From positions 1-24,000 of the forward strand of contig JBBQLO010000005.1 in the NCBI GenBank assembly GCA_038327915.1: 24,000 nucleotides of DNA, in the 5' to 3' direction. The notes beneath the pieces were generated by a model. The model was not told where the DNA came from. It made no database searches and saw nothing but the letters and a program-made list of their open reading frames with translations. The stretch's first letter is position 1, and every line of letters starts with the position of its first letter. The stretch is from Parcubacteria group bacterium. Lineage in GTDB: Bacteria; Patescibacteriota; Minisyncoccia; Phycocordibacterales; DATDWN01. Positions 3,767-14,007 of this stretch are shown one piece after another. The position numbers and the translations under genes are program-made.

Positions 3767-4687
3767 TTAGTATTTTAATTCAGCTACTATTTTTCCAGCG
3801 CCGTCATAAAGAATGATGTCTTCTCTTTCACTTTTCCACAGCGTGCTACTACGTTTCAAATAGACTCGCCATTCTTTAGTGTAGAAATTTGCGTCATTTT
3901 TATGAGTATTTATACATGATGTATAATTTATTTTTGAATAAATAAAATTAGTGCATTCGTAGCTCCAGTTGGCCGGTAGATTTGCTGTTTGAATCTGGCA
4001 AGAAGACATCGAGTTGATGTAATCAAAGCATGCATCGTTAATAACTTGATTGGCGGGAATACTCGAAAGATTTTCATTGCGTGGAGCAGGGCAGTTGGTC
4101 GAGAGATACGGGGTGAAATTTTGAAATTGTGATAAGTAACCCGAACATATATTCACTTTAAAACTTGAGCCGTTTGGTGAGAGACCCGTATCAAGATATA
4201 TAGTGTCGCCAGGGGAGAGTGCCACTGTACTTTCGCTATTTTTTGAATTAGCGAAAAAGAGTGTGGACGCATTAGGAATATTTACAATAACACCGCTTTT
4301 TTTACTTGCCAATGTAAAACCAAGAAGGGGTATGGTGGTGGTAGATTGTTCGTTTTCATGTAAAACAATATATTCTTCCGAAACTGTTTGTGAACGAGAG
4401 ACATATTGAATTAAAATTTGTCCGTAATATTTTGAATGAGATTGGTTTTCTTTTCTGACTTCTTCCGCAACGTCCATTTGTTGTTTGAGAGTATCAACTT
4501 GCGTTTGTGCTGTTTGGATTTGTCCAGCAATACTGGTGTCTGTACTTTTTTGTTCTGTGTAGCTGTTTGATGATTGTGTTGCAGTGGTTGTGATGGTCGG
4601 GTGGATAGCGTTTTTTGCCCCACCAATGAGTCCAACTGCGATGATGCCAAGAATCACTATAATACCTATCCATTCATCTTTTTTCAT
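3767..4687 (-). CDS. Membrane-anchored secreted protein, 306 aa, Cys-rich C-terminus; possible lamin-tail-like domain
   Basis: N-terminal TM helix, Thr/Gln-rich linker, then a beta-rich region (EYIVLHENEQ...LSPGDTIYLDTG). Confidence 0.55.
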   Translation of the reverse strand: MKKDEWIGIIVILGIIAVGLIGGAKNAIHPTITTTATQSSNSYTEQKSTDTSIAGQIQTAQTQVDTLKQQMDVAEEVRKENQSHSKYYGQILIQYVSRSQTVSEEYIVLHENEQSTTTIPLLGFTLASKKSGVIVNIPNASTLFFANSKNSESTVALSPGDTIYLDTGLSPNGSSFKVNICSGYLSQFQNFTPYLSTNCPAPRNENLSSIPANQVINDACFDYINSMSSCQIQTANLPANWSYECTNFIYSKINYTSCINTHKNDANFYTKEWRVYLKRSSTLWKSEREDIILYDGAGKIVAELKY

Positions 4688-4707: not shown

Positions 4708-5610
4708 TTATACCTGATGTATGTTACAAAAATGAGCACTCCTACTCCCAATTACCTTCCGTGTAGTTATTCCAGAACAACCAGTCTTTAAACATTTTTT
4801 TCCAGTTCGACGATATGCTTTGTGAGAATTTTGAAAACCTCCACGTTCCCCATGTATGTTGCGATAGTCAGACATAGAGTCACCCCCAAGATTGATTCCC
4901 GCGACAAGAATTTTCTTCATCGCAGCCCAGATTTTTTTCCTTTCAGATGCTGTGAGTGAGGACACTCTGCGTTCGGGATGTACGCTTGACGCCCAGAGTA
5001 TCTCATCTGAATAAATATTACCAACGCCAGCAATAACCGATTGGTCCATAAGGACGCTTTTTATTTTTCCACTTTTTTTCGTATTTAGTTTAGATGTAAA
5101 TGTTGGAAAGGGGAGATCGTCGAGTGGTTCTGGTCCGAGACCAGCAAGATCAACAACATCTGCACGTTTGGAAGTTTCAAAAAGAATCACTTTGGCGAAT
5201 TTTCGCATGTCAGAAAAAGCGAGATGTTTGCCGTTTGAAAGAGTAAAAATAAGGTGGATAAATTGGTTAAATGAATCGGAAAGAAGTTTCTCTTCACTTT
5301 TCCACACGCCCGTAGGACTCAATGTGTATTTTCCATACAACAGATGTCCGGTCATTTTCATGTGAATGAGAATAGTTTTATTGCCGGAGAGGTGTATCAA
5401 GACATTTTTCCCGCGACGTTCGGCATTGTTAAATTTTGTTCCGACGACCTCTCGTTTAAATTTTTCAAAATACTTTTTGTTTTTTATGGTATCCGTACGC
5501 TTGTTTGCTGTACGAATGTAGTAATCCGTCCAGACATCAGTAATAGAAAGCCCAACAAGAACTTCATTAAGACCGGTGACGGTGGTGGTGACTTCAGGAA
5601 GTTCAGGCAT
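4708..5610 (-). CDS. mutM: Formamidopyrimidine-DNA glycosylase (Fpg/MutM)
   Basis: N-terminal MPELPEV (catalytic Pro2/Glu3). H2TH region VIAGVGNIYSDEILW. C-terminal Cys/His zinc-finger-like segment. Confidence 0.9.
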   Translation of the reverse strand: MPELPEVTTTVTGLNEVLVGLSITDVWTDYYIRTANKRTDTIKNKKYFEKFKREVVGTKFNNAERRGKNVLIHLSGNKTILIHMKMTGHLLYGKYTLSPTGVWKSEEKLLSDSFNQFIHLIFTLSNGKHLAFSDMRKFAKVILFETSKRADVVDLAGLGPEPLDDLPFPTFTSKLNTKKSGKIKSVLMDQSVIAGVGNIYSDEILWASSVHPERRVSSLTASERKKIWAAMKKILVAGINLGGDSMSDYRNIHGERGGFQNSHKAYRRTGKKCLKTGCSGITTRKVIGSRSAHFCNIHQV

Positions 5611-6608: not shown

Positions 6609-7205
6609 ATGAAAAAATACCTTGCAGAAGCACTCGGTGCATTTACTCTCACTTTTGTTGTGGCTCTTTCTCTCGCTGGTAAGTTCCCTGTATCGACACC
6701 AGTACTCGCGGCTCTCGTACTTGGAATGTTTGTGTACTCACTCGGACATATTTCTGGTACACACATTAACCCAGCGGTGACTATAGGCGCATGGTCAATT
6801 AAAAAAATAACCACGGTAGACGCCGTGGTGTATGTAGTTGCTCAGTGTGTCGGAGCACTTCTTGCTTTTGGCCTCGCCACCTTAGTGGGAGTCAGTGCAA
6901 CTAGTAGTTATATTGTTGCAGGTAATACTCTCGGTATTGGTCTTGCTGAAATGTTCGGGACTTTTTTCTTTACCTTTGGTATTGCCTCAGTTATGTACGG
7001 AAGGACACCAAGCCAGCTTTCGGGAGTTGTTGTTGGAGGCTCGCTCCTTCTTGGCATCAGCATTGCCGCCTTACTCGGTTCAAACGGAATTCTCAACCCC
7101 GCCGTTGCACTCGGTATCGGATCAGTGAGTTTTATGTACCTCTTTGCTCCTATTGTAGGTTCAATCGTAGGTATGAATGTCTATAAGTACTTAGGAAATA
7201 TTTAG
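6609..7205 (+). CDS. MIP-family channel (aquaporin/glycerol-facilitator-like)
   Basis: Two NPA boxes (HINPAVT and LNPAVALG) in a six-helix hydrophobic protein. Confidence 0.85.
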   Translation: MKKYLAEALGAFTLTFVVALSLAGKFPVSTPVLAALVLGMFVYSLGHISGTHINPAVTIGAWSIKKITTVDAVVYVVAQCVGALLAFGLATLVGVSATSSYIVAGNTLGIGLAEMFGTFFFTFGIASVMYGRTPSQLSGVVVGGSLLLGISIAALLGSNGILNPAVALGIGSVSFMYLFAPIVGSIVGMNVYKYLGNI

Positions 7206-7224: not shown

Positions 7225-7296
7225 GCCCTCGTCGTTCAACGGATAGGACACTGGCCTGCGAAGCTGGAAATACAGGTTCGATTCCTGTCGAGAGCA
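7225..7296 (+). tRNA. tRNA-Arg, anticodon GCG; no encoded CCA
   Basis: Manual cloverleaf. Acceptor gccctcg/cgagagc has one C3:A70 mismatch. D-arm gttc/ggac. Anticodon loop is cuGCGaa. T-arm acagg-ttcgatt-cctgt. Discriminator A. Confidence 0.8.
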
Positions 7297-7568
7297 CAAA
7301 ATGAGTTTACGAATTTTTGTGCTCTCGAAGTAAGAGCATGTTATGCTCTTACGTCAGGAATCGAAAATCTGTGATAGTTTTCTTGAGTGTAGTCACGAAA
7401 AGAAAACAGAACAGATGTACAGTTCCTGTAAGGAAAGATTCCTGTCCTGTAAGGAATCGAAAAGCGGAGCGGGTACCAATTGAGTGCAATTGGTCGCGAG
7501 CTGCGGACACGACAAAAATTTTTGACGGAAAATTTTTAGTTGTGGACGATTCCTGTCAGGAATCGACA
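7279..7568. repeat. Cluster of direct and inverted copies of the tRNA T-arm/3' acceptor sequence
   Basis: Direct copies of (c)gattcctgtc at 7437-7446 and 7547-7557 (original at 7279-7289). Inverted copies of (c)aggaatcg at 7355-7363, 7452-7460 and 7557-7565. 13-bp perfect hairpin 7289-7301/7315-7327 uses the tRNA 3' end. Confidence 0.7.
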
Positions 7569-7725
7569 GTTCTGTATAAAATCTACATGAGGCTACAGAT
7601 CATATGTCAAAATAATGCACATTGGAAAATAGTGCTAGAGGAGAGAGATTTTATGTTTCTTTTCGCTTACGCGGTCCAAAACAATCTAACTCACACTATT
7701 TTTCAATGTACTTTTGTCATATGAC

Positions 7726-8160
7726 CTATAGCCTCATAGAGACTTTCAATAATACTTTAAAATAAGAGCGTCTGTTTCGCTTTTTTAAGCTCATCAGTCG
7801 GAGTACACACTCCGAGACAGATGGGGTGTTTGTAGCACCTCCAGTTTTGGAAACAGCAGTTGGACTGTTTCCTGTAAACATGGTCACGTCGTCCCACCAA
7901 CTTGTGGAAAGAACTATAGCCCAATGCTTTTGATAACAACACGGGCTTTTTTTCCAGACGCACTCGTGAGCACACTGCCCCACGCCAGTGGGTTGTGTCG
8001 TGCCGGGTGCTGGTCGCAGTGAGCTGGATCCGAACACCCACCATTCAGGCCTGGTGGGTGCTGTTCCTTGACCGAGGTACTGCGCCATGTAGCCAGCCTC
8101 TTTCAAAGCCTCCACAATTTTTTCGGCATTTGTATGCCGGACCCTAATTTTTCTTGTCAC
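7726..8160 (-). CDS. Questionable 144-aa ORF with GTG start; the N-terminal part is plausible, the C-terminal part reads through a non-coding repeat and the hammerhead
   Basis: GTGA start/stop overlap with the upstream 57-aa ORF. However, residues from about 80 onward cover the repeat at 7845-7916 (out of frame relative to its other copy) and the ribozyme. Confidence 0.3.
   Translation of the reverse strand: MTRKIRVRHTNAEKIVEALKEAGYMAQYLGQGTAPTRPEWWVFGSSSLRPAPGTTQPTGVGQCAHECVWKKSPCCYQKHWAIVLSTSWWDDVTMFTGNSPTAVSKTGGATNTPSVSECVLRLMSLKKRNRRSYFKVLLKVSMRL
7771..7821 (-). ncRNA. Type III hammerhead self-cleaving ribozyme
   Basis: Minus strand reads UCUGUC|UCGGAGU-GUGU-ACUCCGA-CUGAUGA-GCUU-AAAA-AAGC-GAA-ACAGA. 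Full core present (C3-A9, G12-A14, A15.1:U16.1, C17). Stem I is 7 bp, stem II is 4 bp starting G10.1:C11.1, and stem III is 5 bp and open. Predicted cleavage lies between 7816 and 7815. Confidence 0.85.
7845..7916 (-). repeat. 3' module, copy 1: TAGTTCTYY...GTTGG...hairpin GGAAACAG/CTGTTTCC...ACTGGAGG
   Basis: About 70 nt alignable with 10405-10476. Confidence 0.6.
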
Positions 8161-8330
8161 TTTCTCTTTCCTAGGGGCAGTAATACCCCCTTGCCAATCC
8201 CTGCCAATATAAAAGCGATTGAGGCGAAGAGAATTCCTTCACCCACATTGACGGGTTGCCCCATCAATTTTTCTCCAATTAGGTATCCTGCGGTTAAGCA
8301 GGAAAAAATAGCTAACAAAAAAATTCTCAT
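8157..8330 (-). CDS. Small two-helix membrane protein, 57 aa
   Basis: ATG at 8330 preceded by CUCUGGGAGGGGUGUAGG. Two hydrophobic segments. The stop overlaps the next GTG start. Confidence 0.5.
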   Translation of the reverse strand: MRIFLLAIFSCLTAGYLIGEKLMGQPVNVGEGILFASIAFILAGIGKGVLLPLGKRK

Positions 8331-8450
8331 CCTACACCCCTCCCAGAGGTTGTTTGCGTATGCCCGCCGGCAAATCATTCCGCACCATTTAACCATCTTG
8401 TGTTATCAACACACAGATGACGAAGTGGTTGGGAAGGGGGAAGTGCACAG
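8331..8450 (-). promoter_or_regulatory. Structured 5' leader, copy C (divergent paralog of copies A and B)
   Basis: Shares five elements with A/B: CCCCCUUCC anti-SD, a variable hairpin, GGUGCG, a hairpin with GGCG loop (UGCC/GGCA), and GCAAACAACCUCUGGGAGGGG followed by AUG. Confidence 0.5.
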
Positions 8451-8524
8451 TAACATGTAAATGTGACCGAGTACCTCCCCCAGTAAAGAACATCTGGTGT
8501 ATGTCTACTGACAACACCAGCAGT

Positions 8525-8552
8525 GAGATGGTGACCGGTACCATCTCTTTTT
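8525..8552 (+). terminator. Plus-strand intrinsic-terminator-like hairpin inside the minus-strand island
   Basis: gagatggt-gaccgg-taccatctc followed by ttttt. The T-run is on the plus strand only. Confidence 0.4.
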
Positions 8553-8622
8553 GTACACATACTCTCCACTTCGGTCCTTCGGGAGAGATACGTTTCAGTG
8601 GGTAACGTATAACCAGGGAGAA

Positions 8623-8964
8623 CTAGGAAATTTTAGCGAGCTTTGCTGCCTCCGTCTTTTTTTTAGCGTAATCCTTTGCCCAGGACAGGGCAACATCAAG
8701 GTGGGGGCCCTTGACCGAGGTCATATCGACCCCGGCCACCTCTATTTCCATGTATTCCACCCACCTCCACTTCCTAGAATAGAAGTAGAGGGAGATTGGC
8801 TTCCCACCAATCTCTCCTACAATCTCCTCTATTTCCCGTTCGCCCCCATCCTTGGGGGCGAGCATGTCCTGAATCTTTTCTTTTTTTAATTTCCACCAAA
8901 TAAAAACAAGAAACAGCATATAGCCTATAATCATCACAATTCTGACATAAATTTCAAACAGCAT
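8623..8964 (-). CDS. Hypothetical protein, 113 aa, with an N-terminal TM helix
   Basis: ATG lies 6 nt after GGGAGGGGGCG of leader A. Hydrophobic N-terminus and charged C-terminal domain. Confidence 0.5.
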   Translation of the reverse strand: MLFEIYVRIVMIIGYMLFLVFIWWKLKKEKIQDMLAPKDGGEREIEEIVGEIGGKPISLYFYSRKWRWVEYMEIEVAGVDMTSVKGPHLDVALSWAKDYAKKKTEAAKLAKIS

Positions 8965-9134
8965 ATTACGCCCCCTCCCAGAGGCTTTTGCACATTGGTC
9001 TGCCGACCAGTCTCAATTTCAAGCTTTCACTTTGGCTGAGACCACGCACCGACTTCTGATCAACTCACGATGTATGTGTTTTTCAACATATACATCCGAA
9101 GCTGAATAAGAAGGAGGACTCTGGTAATTAAACC
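8965..9134 (-). promoter_or_regulatory. Structured 5' leader, copy A
   Basis: The 82-nt block 8969-9050 differs at only 3 positions from 10256-10337. It is followed by a 50-nt variable hairpin insert (9051-9100), then a second shared block from 9101. Confidence 0.6.
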
Positions 9135-9287
9135 ATTGTCATCCGATAAACAACGCAGATTTTGTATAATGGGTATCTGCTGACCCATCCGTATTTTTCC
9201 TATTAGGAAATACGGAACCTGAAAGAACTTTGAGGCAGAGAGTCAGGCTCTGTCTCAATTACGATGTCCCGCTGACTCGGGATGAAA

Positions 9288-10130
9288 CTACTTCTGAATG
9301 AGTAACGTGGGGAGGACGCCCTCTTCCCAATCAGGTTTTTTGTACTTGATCGGGGTAACTCTGTAGGCGTTCTTGTAGAGATCAAGGTACACCCCTTTGT
9401 GCATCGGCTTTTCAGCCGATGGGGTGAATGTCAAACTCCACTGGTTTGTAGCCAGTTTGGTCACCTCGAGGGAATTTCCGCTCGTGGCGGATTTAAAAAA
9501 AAGTTGACTGATGTCCTCCTCATCGAAAGCCTCCCAACCTCCGAAGCTTCCTCGGTTTTCGACTGGGATTCCCGTTCTCCCAGCTTCCAAATTCACGCGC
9601 CGTCCACCACAACTCTGACTTGCGACGTGTGCTTGGAGTGGGTTCACCCCCGGCACATACTCGAGTTGATTCGTGAGTGTGTTTGCGATGTTTGCGACTG
9701 CACTCCACGAAATAATTTTTTCCGGCAGAGGCTTGAGCGCCTGCCCAAGCTCTCCTGCAAAAAGCAGCACCAGCTTCTCTGCCCGAGTTCCGAGGTACGA
9801 ACCTTGTTTCCTAATCCACGGTTTGAAAATCTCGTGGTTTGAGTGGCTTAAACCTTTAAGCCGTTTGATCAATTTATTTCTCACCACCGAGTCACCGGTT
9901 AGTGCGATCATCCGACCATAGTCGGAGGTCTTGTCCCGACCATATGTCTCAATTTCTTCGGCAACAGCAACTGCTGCCACCAAATACCAGCCAATGTCTT
10001 CTATCCCGATCTGGTTTTCTTTCGGTCTTTGTGCGGCAGCTCGGAGAGCCTGCACGAGCATACTGCCCGTGCCAATCTCTCTTTTTTCTACTATCTGGCA
10101 CATAAGTGCCTTCGAATTTTCTACAATCAT
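9288..10130 (-). CDS. Orphan protein, 280 aa, family not recognised
   Basis: Clear coding periodicity with GC-rich codons. AAGGAGA SD lies 5 nt before the ATG at 10130, which I prefer over the track start at 10160. Confidence 0.7.
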   Translation of the reverse strand: MIVENSKALMCQIVEKREIGTGSMLVQALRAAAQRPKENQIGIEDIGWYLVAAVAVAEEIETYGRDKTSDYGRMIALTGDSVVRNKLIKRLKGLSHSNHEIFKPWIRKQGSYLGTRAEKLVLLFAGELGQALKPLPEKIISWSAVANIANTLTNQLEYVPGVNPLQAHVASQSCGGRRVNLEAGRTGIPVENRGSFGGWEAFDEEDISQLFFKSATSGNSLEVTKLATNQWSLTFTPSAEKPMHKGVYLDLYKNAYRVTPIKYKKPDWEEGVLPTLLIQK

Positions 10131-10253
10131 TGCTGTCTCCTTAGCCCCACTCGCCAGCAATAACGAGGGGGTCTGTTTTGGATTTTGATTGAGACTTGCG
10201 CCTCTTGTTAATAAAAAAATATTTCAATCAACAAGAGACGCGAGTTCAAAATA

Positions 10254-10403
10254 TCCGCCCCCTCCCAGAGGCTTTTGCACATTGGTCTGCCGACCAGTCT
10301 CAATTTCAAGCCTTCGCTTTGGTTGAGACCACGCACCTTATTCCTATCAGCTTTCGAATTAATTCGTTAGCTGAATAAGAAGGGGGACTCGGTAGTGAAC
10401 CGT
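10254..10403 (-). promoter_or_regulatory. Structured 5' leader, copy B; its cognate start codon is lost
   Basis: Same blocks as copy A, with a 32-nt variable insert (10338-10369). ATT replaces the ATG seen in copy A. Followed by a possible 13-codon TTG uORF (10208-10249) and a 12-bp hairpin (10198-10241). Confidence 0.6.
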
Positions 10404-10404
10404 G

Positions 10405-10476
10405 TCCCCCAGTTTGGAAACAGTGGTTGGACTGTTTTCTGAAAACTACTCCTGCCAACTCAGAAAAAGAACTACC
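10405..10476 (-). repeat. 3' module, copy 2
   Basis: Begins at the TAG stop of the 64-aa ORF. Contains hairpin GAAAACAG/CTGTTTCC and then ACTGGGGGA. Confidence 0.6.
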
Positions 10477-10666
10477 TCCCGAAAAAGAACTTTCTTACTG
10501 TCGGTGTCATCCACCAGCAGCATCTCAGTTCCCACTCTGAATAATCTAGGAGGGCCTCCTCCACCTCTGCCTGGTTTTGATAGCCGTCCACTAAGGGCGG
10601 CCCTCCAAGACATTCTGGTCGCCCATATCTCCACCCTTCTTTTAACATACTAATAAACATCTTCAT
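10472..10666 (-). CDS. Small hypothetical protein, 64 aa
   Basis: ATG preceded by GAGGAAAGAGGAAAAAA. The SD can pair with an upstream CCUCG segment. Confidence 0.4.
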   Translation of the reverse strand: MKMFISMLKEGWRYGRPECLGGPPLVDGYQNQAEVEEALLDYSEWELRCCWWMTPTVRKFFFGR

Positions 10667-10936
10667 TTTTTCCTCTTTCCTCGACTTAACCCCCGAGGTG
10701 GGTTTTTGAATTTCAGGGATTTTGCAACCCCTCTTTCCAGCACTAACAAAACTTACGCGATCCTAATGCTGGAGAAGAGGAATAACACTGTGGTTATCTT
10801 TTACAGAAATTTTTTCCACGTTATCCTTACTTCTCTATGATCACCCTTCCTATCCGCAGATATTCCAGATAATTTTTGTCAGTGAACTTTCAACTCTCTT
10901 TTTATTGAGAGAAGTGGAGAGGCGACTTTGTATAAT

Positions 10937-10965
10937 AATTTAGTTCGCGTCCACACTTCCTTCAA
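10937..10965 (-). promoter_or_regulatory. Candidate sigma70 promoter for the island's minus-strand transcript
   Basis: On the minus strand: TTGAAG (10965-10960), 17-nt spacer, TAAATT (10942-10937). Confidence 0.3.
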
Positions 10966-11287
10966 TAAGTTATTTGGCCTATTGTGATAAAACAAAACAG
11001 GCGACGAGCTCTTTGAGGGAGCCAATCGCCTGCTTTCTACGATATATCGTAATGCAAGTGTTGGTTGTTTGGTGTTCTAAACATAAAGTATCCCGGCGAG
11101 TATTGCTGTTGGTATCAGCGGGGTACGATATGTTGGGCACCAAGACTCTCTCCTCTAAAGATTGTCTTAAATGTTTTTTTTTAAGTACTTTGTTTTATCT
11201 TGAAAATTCTCATCTCCTTTAATAATATAATCATATCATACTATATTAAAACTGTCAAATACTTTTCTATTTACTTTTTTTAATACT

Positions 11288-11316
11288 AAAAAAAGCCTTA
11301 CGTAAAGCCATTTTTT
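11288..11316. terminator. Weak bidirectional terminator-like element
   Basis: A-run, imperfect palindrome gccttacgtaaagc, then T-run. Lies downstream of the minus-strand gene that ends at 11413. Confidence 0.3.
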
Positions 11317-11412
11317 AGTATCATTTATAAAAGAGGAAGTTTTTGGATATTCACATCTCATCTTCATATTCGATTTGGTATGCTCAGTTTGGAACTTTCA
11401 TATTGAGATGTG

Positions 11413-11868
11413 CTAAAATCCAAAATATATAAGCAATTTCTCAAGGAGTGGCTCGGTGTGCTGCACTTCTGGCAGGTGATCTGATAAAAAAAGATGAATA
11501 TGTTCAGCATTTCCGTTGCCCATGAGCACGACGATGTATGGAGAAAGCTTTTTTTCAGATTTAAAAAATACTCGAGGATATTGATCTTGTGTCTCAACCC
11601 AGAATGACTGCAGATTTGTGTAAGGGTAGTATGTCTTGTTTATCTGGACACCGAGGCGTGTGAGTTTGATGTCTATTATTTGAGGTTTGCGGGTAGCGTA
11701 TAAAGTGAGAACGCTCGCAGATACTACCACTAATAATCCAAAAATAAGATTGTTTAAAATTATGGCGATAAGGGCGATAGAAAGAGTTACCGCTCCCACA
11801 ATCCAATACCAGTCGGTGTTTTTCTCGGTGTGAATATATTCATGTGTTTGCCAGGAGAGTGTTTCCAT
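11413..11868 (-). CDS. Two-helix membrane protein, 151 aa, unknown function
   Basis: Hydrophobic hairpin WYWIVGAVTLSIALIAIILNNLIFGLLVVVSASVLTLY. I prefer the start at METLSW. Confidence 0.6.
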   Translation of the reverse strand: METLSWQTHEYIHTEKNTDWYWIVGAVTLSIALIAIILNNLIFGLLVVVSASVLTLYATRKPQIIDIKLTRLGVQINKTYYPYTNLQSFWVETQDQYPRVFFKSEKKLSPYIVVLMGNGNAEHIHLFLSDHLPEVQHTEPLLEKLLIYFGF

Positions 11869-12475: not shown

Positions 12476-13276
12476 ATGACGTATATGTATGGCAAAAAAA
12501 TCACAGTGCTTATCCCTTGTTATAACGAAGAAGAGGGCATTGCGAATGTGATCAAGAGTTTTCCAAAAGAAAAATTGTTTGAGCAGGGTTTTTCTCTCGA
12601 AATAATTGTTATTGACAATAATTCAAAAGATAAAACTTCAGAAATAGCCCACTCGCTAGGAGCGTTAGTTATACACGAGCCAAAAAGTGGTAAAGGTAAT
12701 GCACTCCGCCACGGCTTCCAATTAATTTCAGAAGATACAGATTATGTTGTGATGCTTGACGGGGACAATACATACCGTCCAGAAGAAATACTTCGTCTCA
12801 TAGAGCCGATTCATTCTGGTTTTTGTGATGTTGTTATTGGGTCGCGTCTCGGTGGACGTATTACCGAGGGATCAATGAGTGCTCTGAACAGGGCAGGCAA
12901 TTGGATATATTCGCATCTTGTTCGATATTTTTATGGGGTCAACGTGACTGATGTATTAACGGGGTACTATGCGTGGAGAAAAGATGCTCTCGAACGACTC
13001 CGGCCTCATCTTTATTCAGAGGGATTTACTATTGAGATGGAAATGGTCACTAAAATGGCACAACTCGGGGAGGAAATATACTGCGTACCTATTAGCTATG
13101 ACACTCGAGCCGGACATACCAATTTAAGCCCATTGCATGATGGTGTGCGAATTTTATGGGTATTGATTAAAAATATGTTTTGGAGACCAGTGGACATACC
13201 TGGGTATGTTTCGAATCATTCGGGAGAGTCACTCCATAAACAGTCAAAAGGAAGTAATGTTTTTATAACTAAATAA
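12476..13276 (+). CDS. GT2-family glycosyltransferase (polyprenyl-phosphate sugar transferase-like)
   Basis: Motifs VLIPCYNEEEGI, VIDNNSKDKT, GKGNALRHG and MLDGDNTY. Confidence 0.85.
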   Translation: MTYMYGKKITVLIPCYNEEEGIANVIKSFPKEKLFEQGFSLEIIVIDNNSKDKTSEIAHSLGALVIHEPKSGKGNALRHGFQLISEDTDYVVMLDGDNTYRPEEILRLIEPIHSGFCDVVIGSRLGGRITEGSMSALNRAGNWIYSHLVRYFYGVNVTDVLTGYYAWRKDALERLRPHLYSEGFTIEMEMVTKMAQLGEEIYCVPISYDTRAGHTNLSPLHDGVRILWVLIKNMFWRPVDIPGYVSNHSGESLHKQSKGSNVFITK

Positions 13277-13281
13277 AATAT

Positions 13282-14007
13282 ATGAAACTCTCTGTTGTCA
13301 TCCCAGCTCTGAATGAAGAATCGGGAATTAAAGCTACTATTGAGCAGATACCTATACGAGCATTGGAAGCAATGGGTTTTTCTGTTGAAATTATTGTTTC
13401 TGACAATGGATCTACCGACAAGACGGCAGAAATATCTAGAAAAGCTGGCGCTACGGTAGTGCACCAGCCTCTTCAGGGGTACGGTAACGCATATCGTGCT
13501 GGATTTGAATATGCAAGCGGAGATATTATCGCCACAGGGGATGCTGACATGACATACCCTTTTGACATGTTGCCAGAGCTTTTAAAAGAAATGAAAAAGA
13601 ATGAATATGATTTCGTCAGTACGGATCGTTTGGGAACTTTGGATTCAGGGGTTATGACTTTCTTTCACGTCTTTGGAAACTGGATGTTGAGCACTGCTAC
13701 ACGAATACTTTTTAACTGGCCATTTAGTGATTCTCAGTCTGGAATGTGGATTTTTAAACGTACAATATTGAAACACCTCGACCTTTATTCGGAGGGGATG
13801 CCTTTTTCTCAGGAGTTAAAAATCGAGGCATATAGAAAAGGTTTTAAATGCGGAGAGTTTCCTATTGAGTATAGGGCTCGTATTGGAGAAGTAAAGCTCA
13901 ATACTATTCGTGATGGTATGGGCAATATCACACAGCTTATAAAAATGAAATTCAATCAGAAACAAAAAAGAAAAAACAGTTTTTTTTCGGAAACGATACA
14001 GAATTAA
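13282..14007 (+). CDS. GT2-family glycosyltransferase
   Basis: Motifs VVIPALNEESGI, VSDNGSTDKT, GYGNAYRAG and GDADMTYP. Confidence 0.85.
   Translation: MKLSVVIPALNEESGIKATIEQIPIRALEAMGFSVEIIVSDNGSTDKTAEISRKAGATVVHQPLQGYGNAYRAGFEYASGDIIATGDADMTYPFDMLPELLKEMKKNEYDFVSTDRLGTLDSGVMTFFHVFGNWMLSTATRILFNWPFSDSQSGMWIFKRTILKHLDLYSEGMPFSQELKIEAYRKGFKCGEFPIEYRARIGEVKLNTIRDGMGNITQLIKMKFNQKQKRKNSFFSETIQN

Follow-up and report, generated by a model that had tools for sequence, protein, structure and literature searches.

A three-copy family of hairpin-rich elements, probably translational leaders, in a GC-rich island of a Parcubacteria group bacterium

The 24,000-nt stretch of DNA analysed here (the window; contig JBBQLO010000005.1 of assembly GCA_038327915.1, Parcubacteria group bacterium) contains a genuine three-member family of paralogous repeats, copies A, B and C, on the minus strand of a small island. 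These hairpin-rich leader modules end in a Shine-Dalgarno (SD) sequence and sit before unrelated genes, the translation of which they probably shape, possibly as a shared operator. Folding predicts that the SD is half-masked by a local hairpin; neither an RNA thermometer nor the switch proposed in a preliminary description of this DNA is favoured.

Results

The repeat family

A repeat search of the window aligned A (8969-9070) with B (10256-10357) over 102 nt at 89% identity, and found CCCCTCCCAGAGG three times, at 8337, 8972 and 10259. Direct comparison confirmed the 82-nt block common to A and B; it runs from GGUGCG to GGGAGGGGGCG and contains exactly three differences, at block positions 15, 22 and 26. 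The first (G/A) lies within the GUCUCAR/UUGAGAC helix and exchanges G:U for A:U, the second (U/C) affects the closing pair of AAGY-GAAR-GCUU, which is U:G or C:G, and the third (A/G) occupies a loop position; the two helix differences are thus wobble-compatible on the minus strand, as had been reported. Between UUCAGCU and GGUGCG each copy carries an insert that forms its own hairpin, again as described, but the inserts count 49 nt in A and 31 nt in B instead of 50 and 32.

Copy C aligns to the A/B core with a 28-nt deletion that removes helix P3. It has GGUGCG, the hairpin UGCC-GGCG-GGCA and GCAAA..CCUCUGGGAGGGG 8 nt upstream of the ATG at 8330. With C left out of its training copies, a covariance model of A and B still recovers C at 26.7 bits (E=5e-5), the next match scoring 10.2 bits, so the kinship of C does not depend on the hand-made alignment, and together with the GGUGCG box and the compensatory changes in P4 it bears out the earlier view that this divergent copy keeps the architecture with covariation. 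Copies B and A score 109 and 106.6 bits, and the covariance-model search found no fourth copy in the 24-kb window. A coding explanation of the repeats was rejected: the 13-mer CCUCUGGGAGGGG gives LWEG in one frame of every copy, but the frame of GGUGCG varies, and the A/B differences would amount to one synonymous and two non-synonymous changes.

Predicted fold and masking of the Shine-Dalgarno sequence

Folding with added upstream sequence extended all three elements in the 5' direction, and in every copy both the minimum free energy (MFE) structure and the centroid comprise four tandem domains, namely P0, P2, a core and a small hairpin CCUCU-GGGA-GGGG. Copy A (8965-9146, minus strand) has P0 at 9113-9144, P2 at 9054-9112, the core at 8990-9049, the SD hairpin at 8970-8985 with GGGAGGGG at 8972-8979, and the ATG at 8964. 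Copy B (10254-10412, minus strand) has P0 at 10382-10410, P2 at 10341-10381, the core with Pa, P3, P3a and P4 at 10277-10336, and the SD hairpin at 10257-10272 with GGGAGGGG at 10259-10266. Copy C (8331-8483, minus strand) has P0 at 8436-8481, a variable hairpin, GGUGCG at 8381-8386, P4 at 8361-8372, no P3, GGGAGGGG at 8337-8344 and the ATG at 8330. The elements had therefore been located correctly, but they start farther upstream than supposed, near 9144 (A), 10410 (B) and 8481 (C), the 5' strand of P0 having been missed.

P0 is a hairpin that pairs an upstream G-tract with the C-rich tract formerly called an anti-SD. It reads GGGGGAC-A-CGGU..ACCG-A-GUCCCCC in B, GGAUGAC-AA-UGGU..ACCA-GA-GUCCUCC in A and GGGGGAGG..CUUCCCCC in C; between A and B, with one gap placement corrected by reading, there are two double compensatory changes (G-C/A-U and C-G/U-A) and also one disruptive change. 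A U-rich tract follows P0 in A and B only. P2, also a hairpin, varies at its tip, and its closing helix (UCAGCU/AGYUGA) contains G:U in A and G:C in B. The core consists of a GGUGCG/YGCA helix enclosing the optional P3 and a covarying P4 with a GGCR loop, and P4 shows two double compensatory changes, GGUC-GGCA-GACC in A and B vs UGCC-GGCG-GGCA in C. Standard pairs fill 51/51 pair cells of the four core helices, whereas controls slid by 1-3 columns reach 18-39%. Invariant sequences in single-stranded regions and junctions are GGUGCG, CGGC, GCAAA and the above 13-mer. The minus-strand folding z-scores are -5.1 for A (MFE -65 kcal/mol), -5.9 for B (MFE -69 kcal/mol) and -3.1 for C.

The terminal hairpin CCUCU-GGGA-GGGG has 5-6 bp. 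In ensemble folding it is the GGGG of the SD, its 3' half, that is paired, with the CCUCU beside it (P 0.74-0.98), whereas the GGGA 5' half is exposed in the loop; this agrees with the earlier proposal of SD sequestration in so far as the SD is partly base-paired. Opening the SD is predicted to require 6.0, 7.8 and 4.8 kcal/mol in the three copies. It had also been suggested that the 5' C-tract pairs with the SD. The complementarity is present, since all copies possess the tracts G1 (CUGGGGGA or GGAUGAC), C1 (CCCCCUUC or CCUCCUUC), C2 (CCUCU) and G2 (GGGAGGGG), but the forced long-range helix lies +6.1, +8.4 and +8.6 kcal/mol over the MFE, with the C-tract taken by P0 and the G-run by CCUCU. 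The predicted SD accessibility is unchanged from 15 to 45 C, which speaks against the thermosensor logic once considered.

Strand and distribution of substitutions

Copies A, B and C share the minus strand with the 280-aa gene, the promoter and the hammerhead described below. The elements are assigned to minus-strand RNA, in agreement with the preliminary description, because of the gene orientation, the hammerhead and the G:U pattern, with which all G:U-type changes are consistent. The differences between A and B are unevenly distributed, 3/82 in the 3' block vs 11/47 in the 5' block (Fisher p=0.0009), and the conservation of the 3' block implies selection or gene conversion on the core and the SD.

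Searches for relatives

Relatives of A, B and C were sought by four exact-pattern designs in viral, genome and metagenome collections, by BLASTN against phages and plasmids, and by covariance models on every fetched locus. None was found by any of these routes, exact motif matching in the collections being able to exclude close relatives, whereas divergent ones could escape it. The pattern GCAAAN{2,3}CCTCTGGGAGGGG gave 0 viral matches and 23 in genomes, at chance level and in unrelated taxa; GGTGCGN{23,53}GCAAAN{2,3}CCTCTGGGAG gave one viral and 23 metagenome matches, every one within coding regions; the 5' block pattern gave 0 matches, and of 22 viral matches to the terminal-hairpin pattern 0 fitted the covariance model. 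BLASTN of the island against phages and plasmids returned no match. Rfam 15 placed nothing on A, B or C at the gathering threshold and only noise at E<=10 (fstAT, E=9; Gl_U2, E=1.5), consistent with the earlier statement that the element could not be assigned to a familiar RNA family.

The loci of homologues of the 280-aa protein have only coding sequence in common with the window and contain no significant covariance-model match, so the homologue search with a covariance model that the preliminary description had called for yielded no relatives in related loci. Two candidates were rejected as homologues, the leaders of locus L057 (CGGCGGGCA, AACAACC, GGGAGG) and a hairpin of locus L052, AAAAGCCUCUUGAAAAGAGGGGC; with E 0.65-7 they are not significant and serve as analogy only. 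Locus L057 (2466-6003; likewise L058) contains its own family of five tandem-hairpin leaders of ~100-200 nt that end in GGGAGG and ATG, and precede five unrelated genes, among them one for a homologue of the 280-aa protein; their variation is of the wobble type when read on the gene strand. In L057, as in L056, there is a divergent TrmB-family regulator upstream. The low-GC contig L049 carries 98% identical repeats after each GC-rich gene (4955-5097 and 6995-7141). Each of these repeats holds a GC hairpin, GGATCGCGGTTTCAAA and TTAGTTCTTTAAAAA; MITE-like inverted repeats (MITE, miniature inverted-repeat transposable element), TGTCATCC...GGAATGACA, occur nearby at 4085-4330, and the cassette junctions of L049 show GGATCGCGG, similar to the repeat GGAYCGCGTAAG of our island, followed by TTAGTTCTTT. 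The L057/L058 and L049 repeat families cannot be aligned with the window element, and L083 and L084 hold neither repeats nor ribozymes.

The island and its open reading frames

The island spans ~3.1 kb with a GC content of 0.44-0.48 vs 0.36-0.40 in the flanks (GC profile of 7750-10750). Its minus strand encodes four open reading frames (ORFs) of 64, 280, 113 and 57 aa, none of which matches Pfam or PHROG. ORF1 (64 aa, 10472-10666) ends in a TAG stop within TAGTTCTTT. ORF2 (280 aa, 9288-10130), a genuine gene, has its own SD, AAGGAGA, and belongs to an uncharacterised protein family; 49 homologues were found by full HMMER, the best at 46% identity and many aligning only to the C-terminal 120 residues, and these relatives (P0004-P0051) were missed entirely by a word-indexed search. 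Its AF2 model reaches a pLDDT (predicted local distance difference test) of 90.9, and no fold or family match was found in Pfam, PHROG, PDB or BFVD. ORF3 (113 aa, 8623-8964), with an N-terminal hydrophobic helix, is an ORFan for which no homologues were found, and ORF4 (57 aa, 8157-8330) has two hydrophobic segments; the two are unrelated to each other.

Between B and ORF2 lies a long hairpin with 24-nt arms that are 79% complementary (10194-10245, minus strand). It gives a weak RNA-OUT-like match (E=0.14), and a possible upstream ORF of 13 codons, with a UUG start 11 nt after the GGAGG of B, ends in its 3' arm. On the plus strand, terminator-like hairpins with T-runs occur shortly beyond the 5' end of C (8525-8547) and that of A (9169-9188), and a weak promoter-like site with 9/12 matches lies inside ORF3 (8796-8823), so antisense transcripts across the leaders are possible.

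A strong putative promoter resembling the sigma-70 type, TTGACA-17-TATGAT with a TG extension (11230-11258, minus strand), is the best site in 7300-11500 with 11/12 matches and points into the island. On either side of the island is one copy of a 12-nt direct repeat (minus strand), GGATCGCGTAAG upstream (10752-10763) and GGACCGCGTAAG downstream (7666-7677); the repeat GGAYCGCGTAAG has 2 matches in the window vs 0 expected by chance. A tRNA-Arg(GCG) gene lies at 7225-7297 on the plus strand, and its 3'-end sequence CGATTCCTGTC appears again at 7436-7446 and 7547-7557. Both of these CGATTCCTGTC repeats lie in an AT-rich spacer, and there are inverted repeats at 7578-7612/7712-7746. The tRNA-end repeats and inverted repeats look like scars of integration events, and the operon-like island is best explained as horizontally acquired. 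No attC core pair (R'' RYYYAAC ... R' GTTRRRY, 45-160 nt apart) was found on either strand in 7600-10900, and no integrase among the ten window ORFs scanned, a scan that was not exhaustive.

At the 3' end of the island a type III hammerhead ribozyme is predicted (7769-7823, minus strand), with a GUC triplet, CUGAUGAG, a CGAAAC core and helices I, II and III. The hallmarks of the class are present, i.e., CUGAUGA and GAAA in the core, an NUH triplet and three helices with helix III open, and the predicted cut falls between 7816 and 7815. The match is full-length and has E=6e-7 for the whole window (E=5e-9 in the alignment of the site), but its 44.6 bits lie below the gathering score of 48.5 because helix II is short. 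No hammerhead was found in any locus with a homologous 280-aa protein. Two observations concern the Logan contigs of SRR19962015 (L059/L024): the contig with the tRNA side ends exactly at 7769, the 3' end of the hammerhead, and the one bearing the 280-aa gene stops within copies A and B. Such breaks suggest branching of the assembly graph at these repeats or polymorphism of the island.

Each unit of the island is headed by GTTCTTT, which occurs five times on the minus strand in 2.6 kb (7908, 8485, 9222, 10466, 10484) vs ~0.4 expected. Two boxA-like copies (10466-10490) open unit 1, one (9222-9228) opens unit 2, and GUUCUUUA (8485-8491) opens unit 3, 2 nt before P0 of copy C. Unit 4 starts at 7846-7914 with GTTCTTT (7908-7914), AGUUGG and the second copy (7846-7879) of a hairpin repeat, D9, the first copy of which, GAAAACAGU-CCAACC-ACUGUUUCC, lies at 10413-10446 and is 88% identical to it; all these features are on the minus strand. 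A pseudoknot is possible, as the CCAAC loop of D9 complements AGUUGG upstream. Units 1 and 4 thus share an 80-nt head (10413-10490 and 7846-7918) composed of GTTCTTT, AGUUGG, the D9 hairpin and a CUGGRGG hairpin, and it is followed by copy B in unit 1 and by the hammerhead in unit 4. The boxA consensus is GYTCTTTAANA (PMC5725501); the window copies fit only its first 7/11 positions, with the tails UUUC, CAGG, ACUG and CCAC, and this consensus may not be that of the host. GTTCTTT is also found in L049 (5084, 5668, 7128), L051 (5055), L052 (1474, 2807) and L057 (3944, 5807); GTTCTTTAAAA, a full match to the consensus, is present in L049 and L051 and GTTCTTTGAAAA in L049 and L052, flanking homologous cassettes on the gene strand.

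Outside the island, in the plus-strand gene cluster downstream, the N-termini of two adjacent family-2 glycosyltransferase genes are paralogous: a stretch of 61 nt (12586-12646 and 13374-13434, plus strand) is 75% identical between them.

Discussion

We tentatively prefer, at somewhat less than even confidence, to read A, B and C as paralogous cis-acting modules, each combining a 5' leader with a translation-initiation region for one cistron. The island would be transcribed on the minus strand as one unit, from the promoter near 11258 to the hammerhead that closes it, and each module would fold independently into its four tandem domains. The terminal hairpin would display the first half of the strong, G-rich SD in its loop and bury the G-run; opening it would cost a 30S subunit ~5-8 kcal/mol. 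The tandem hairpins further upstream may insulate and stabilise the start region of each cistron, and the invariant junction sequences may offer a common docking surface for the ribosome or a putative trans-acting protein; cistrons with the module would then be translated at a common, possibly co-regulated, level. The L057 array, in which tandem-hairpin leaders ending in GGGAGG and ATG stand beside a homologue of the 280-aa protein, lends support by analogy.

Several findings weigh against this interpretation. Only A and C adjoin a start codon, their ends lying 9 and 8 nt ahead of an ATG; copy B stops 129 nt short of the start of the 280-aa ORF, and that ORF carries an SD of its own. That protein family, the neighbour of B, has no recognisable RNA-binding fold. 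The plus strand folds well too (z -3.9, -6.6 and -4.4 for A, B and C); as both strands beat their shuffles, folding energy gives no choice of strand. That 3/3 substitutions of the 82-nt block fit the structure is expected under neutrality with P=0.14-0.43, because many of its pairs can absorb a transition, and the wobble-compatible substitutions are therefore not significant by themselves. There are only three copies, two of them with 96% core identity, so the covariation rests on few pairs and on the hand alignment of C, and the identity of A and B could reflect recent duplication or gene conversion instead of selection. The preliminary description had named a lack of homologues beyond recent duplicates and of significant covariation as telling against the element, and this is largely what the searches made here gave, with no homologue outside the window.

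The reading as leader modules has to be weighed against explanations at the level of DNA and of other RNA functions. The repeats might be recombination sequences or attC- or MITE-like cassette boundaries, or recent segmental duplications kept alike by gene conversion, with no RNA function. Such an origin would suit the foreign GC content, the position beside a tRNA-Arg with tRNA-end scars and between 12-nt direct repeats, the placement of the repeats between unrelated ORFan cassettes, the good folding of both strands, the near-identity of the A/B cores and the Logan contigs, with their breaks within A and B and precisely at the hammerhead end. We nevertheless regard it as unlikely, for attC core pairs are absent from both strands of 7600-10900 and reading of the sequence reveals no terminal inverted repeats; the G:U-dependent pairs and changes fit the mRNA-sense strand, opposite to the logic of attC, which operates on the bottom strand; selection on pairing is required to account for the double compensatory changes in P0 and P4; and, ahead of two start codons, the module closes with an SD at the correct distance. 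The same ending in SD and start codon points to translation and counts against modules acting on transcription, by processive antitermination of the nut/put or rrn kind or by attenuation, in which boxA-like GUUCUUU and hairpins would let the polymerase read through long, poorly translated, structured intercistronic regions, past Rho. Multi-copy paralogous RNA elements within one element are familiar from nutL/nutR and putL/putR, and the fivefold occurrence of GTTCTTT at the unit heads, together with GTTCTTTAAAA and GTTCTTTGAAAA, which on the gene strand of L049, L051 and L052 flank homologous cassettes, favours this idea. However, the window copies fit the GYTCTTT half of boxA only and the U-rich tract after P0 is confined to A and B, and we consider antitermination quite improbable. 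A similarly low likelihood applies to a conformational switch in which, through a ligand, temperature or a protein, the C-tract would alternate between the P0 G-tract, leaving the SD freer, and the SD, turning translation off. All three copies have the full set of tracts G1, C1, C2 and G2, and RNAs that bind ligands or proteins typically combine conserved junctions with stems that vary or are optional. The C1:G2 conformer nevertheless lies 6-9 kcal/mol above the MFE, and between 15 and 45 C the predicted accessibility of the SD does not vary. For the riboswitch logic suggested before, no aptamer-like conservation can be shown: C does without P3, which is thus dispensable, the genes downstream are ORFans with no functional relation to one another, and neither an Rfam match nor homologues from which an aptamer could be established were found.

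Two further possibilities appear far less probable. The modules could be cleavage or maturation sites, self-cleaving or RNase-dependent, that yield monocistronic units, in the extreme case a new ribozyme class. A near-canonical hammerhead is predicted on the same strand of the same island, in the place taken by copy B after the common head of units 1 and 4, and novel ribozymes reportedly cluster near hammerheads, which are also said to be able to separate cistrons (work ascribed to Weinberg et al. 2015 and Perreault et al. 2011). No ribozyme model matches A, B or C at E<=10, though, and reading of their sequences reveals no CUGAUGA...GAAA core; no hammerhead was found in the loci with a homologous protein, and three copies are too few to define a catalytic core. 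A degenerate hammerhead in B (CUGAUAG..GAAUAAG) was discarded, as it has no helix II and the motif is not in A (UUGAUCA). We therefore hold processing to be very improbable. Even harder to credit are type I toxin-antitoxin-like leaders, i.e., structured 5' untranslated regions (UTRs) that hold the translation of a small membrane protein off until processing, with cis-antisense control. In their favour are the small size and the hydrophobic helices of ORF3 and ORF4, the partial sequestration of the SD and, on the plus strand, the terminator-like hairpins at 9169-9188 and 8525-8547 and the promoter-like site at 8796-8823. Yet ORF3 and ORF4 are mutually unrelated, exceed typical type I toxins with their 113 and 57 aa and show no homology to known toxins in Pfam and PHROG; B precedes no such ORF, the antisense promoter is weak and fstAT matches only at E=9.

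If the module does set or co-regulate the translation of each cistron, it would amount to a naturally occurring cassette, a portable leader or insulator, that travels with horizontally acquired genes in a streamlined genome. Comparable parts are built in synthetic biology as ribozyme insulators and bicistronic designs. For a private three-copy family whose regulatory role is putative, the importance is moderate. The context may outweigh the leaders themselves, as the hammerhead, the boxA-like unit heads and the leader families of other arrays beside the same protein family together hint at a shared, undescribed expression architecture for foreign gene cassettes. There is a small chance that the leaders are the per-cistron modules of an undescribed mobile gene-cassette array in small, low-GC, probably CPR-like (candidate phyla radiation) genomes. 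If so, foreign GC-rich ORFan cassettes would insert beside tRNA genes, and each array would have its own leader family with a boxA-like GUUCUUU start and a G-rich SD end, as in the window and L057/L058, with repeats in L049; the array here would be terminated by a hammerhead, and the leaders would be either a new processing or self-cleaving RNA or the recognition element of a system for cassette expression or capture.

The elements can be compared with several known systems. The phage nut sites (boxA and boxB), HK022 put and rrn boxA resemble them as paralogous structured copies in one foreign transcription unit, with GYUCUUU followed by hairpins and with compensatory changes, but the window motifs cover 7/11 positions of the consensus (PMC5725501), the conserved block ends in an SD and start codon, and no N/Q-like factor or put-like two-stem architecture was identified here. 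Ribozyme-associated intergenic motifs (hammerhead clusters, RAGATH) also include a same-strand hammerhead in a small mobile-looking island, which in unit 4 stands at the position of copy B; unlike them, A, B and C have no hammerhead, twister, pistol or hatchet signature. REP/BIME, ERIC, BOX and VCR/attC repeats are likewise structured within-genome repeats between unrelated promoterless cassettes, modular and with variable inserts, whereas A, B and C have no attC cores or terminal inverted repeats, their wobble pairs favour the mRNA-sense strand, and they end in a functional-looking ribosome-binding site. Translational riboswitches (SAM-II, preQ1-II/III, NAD+-II, guanidine-III) share with them conserved junctions, variable stems and an SD within the structure, but our elements lack an Rfam match, phylogenetic breadth and a coherent gene association, P3 is absent in C, and the proposed switch helix is energetically disfavoured. 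As in SD-occluding 5' UTRs and RNA thermometers (ROSE, fourU), tandem hairpins are present and the 3'-most one pairs part of the SD just before the start codon. In contrast to ROSE and fourU, A, B and C have no U(U/C)GCU or fourU motif, the strand opposite the SD being CCUCU; their stem is rich in G-C and G-U, is predicted to be stable from 15 to 45 C and pairs only the 3' half of the SD, and the genes that follow are ORFans, not heat-shock or virulence genes. Copies A, B and C stand in no curated family and belong to a known kind, the structured SD-occluding leaders.

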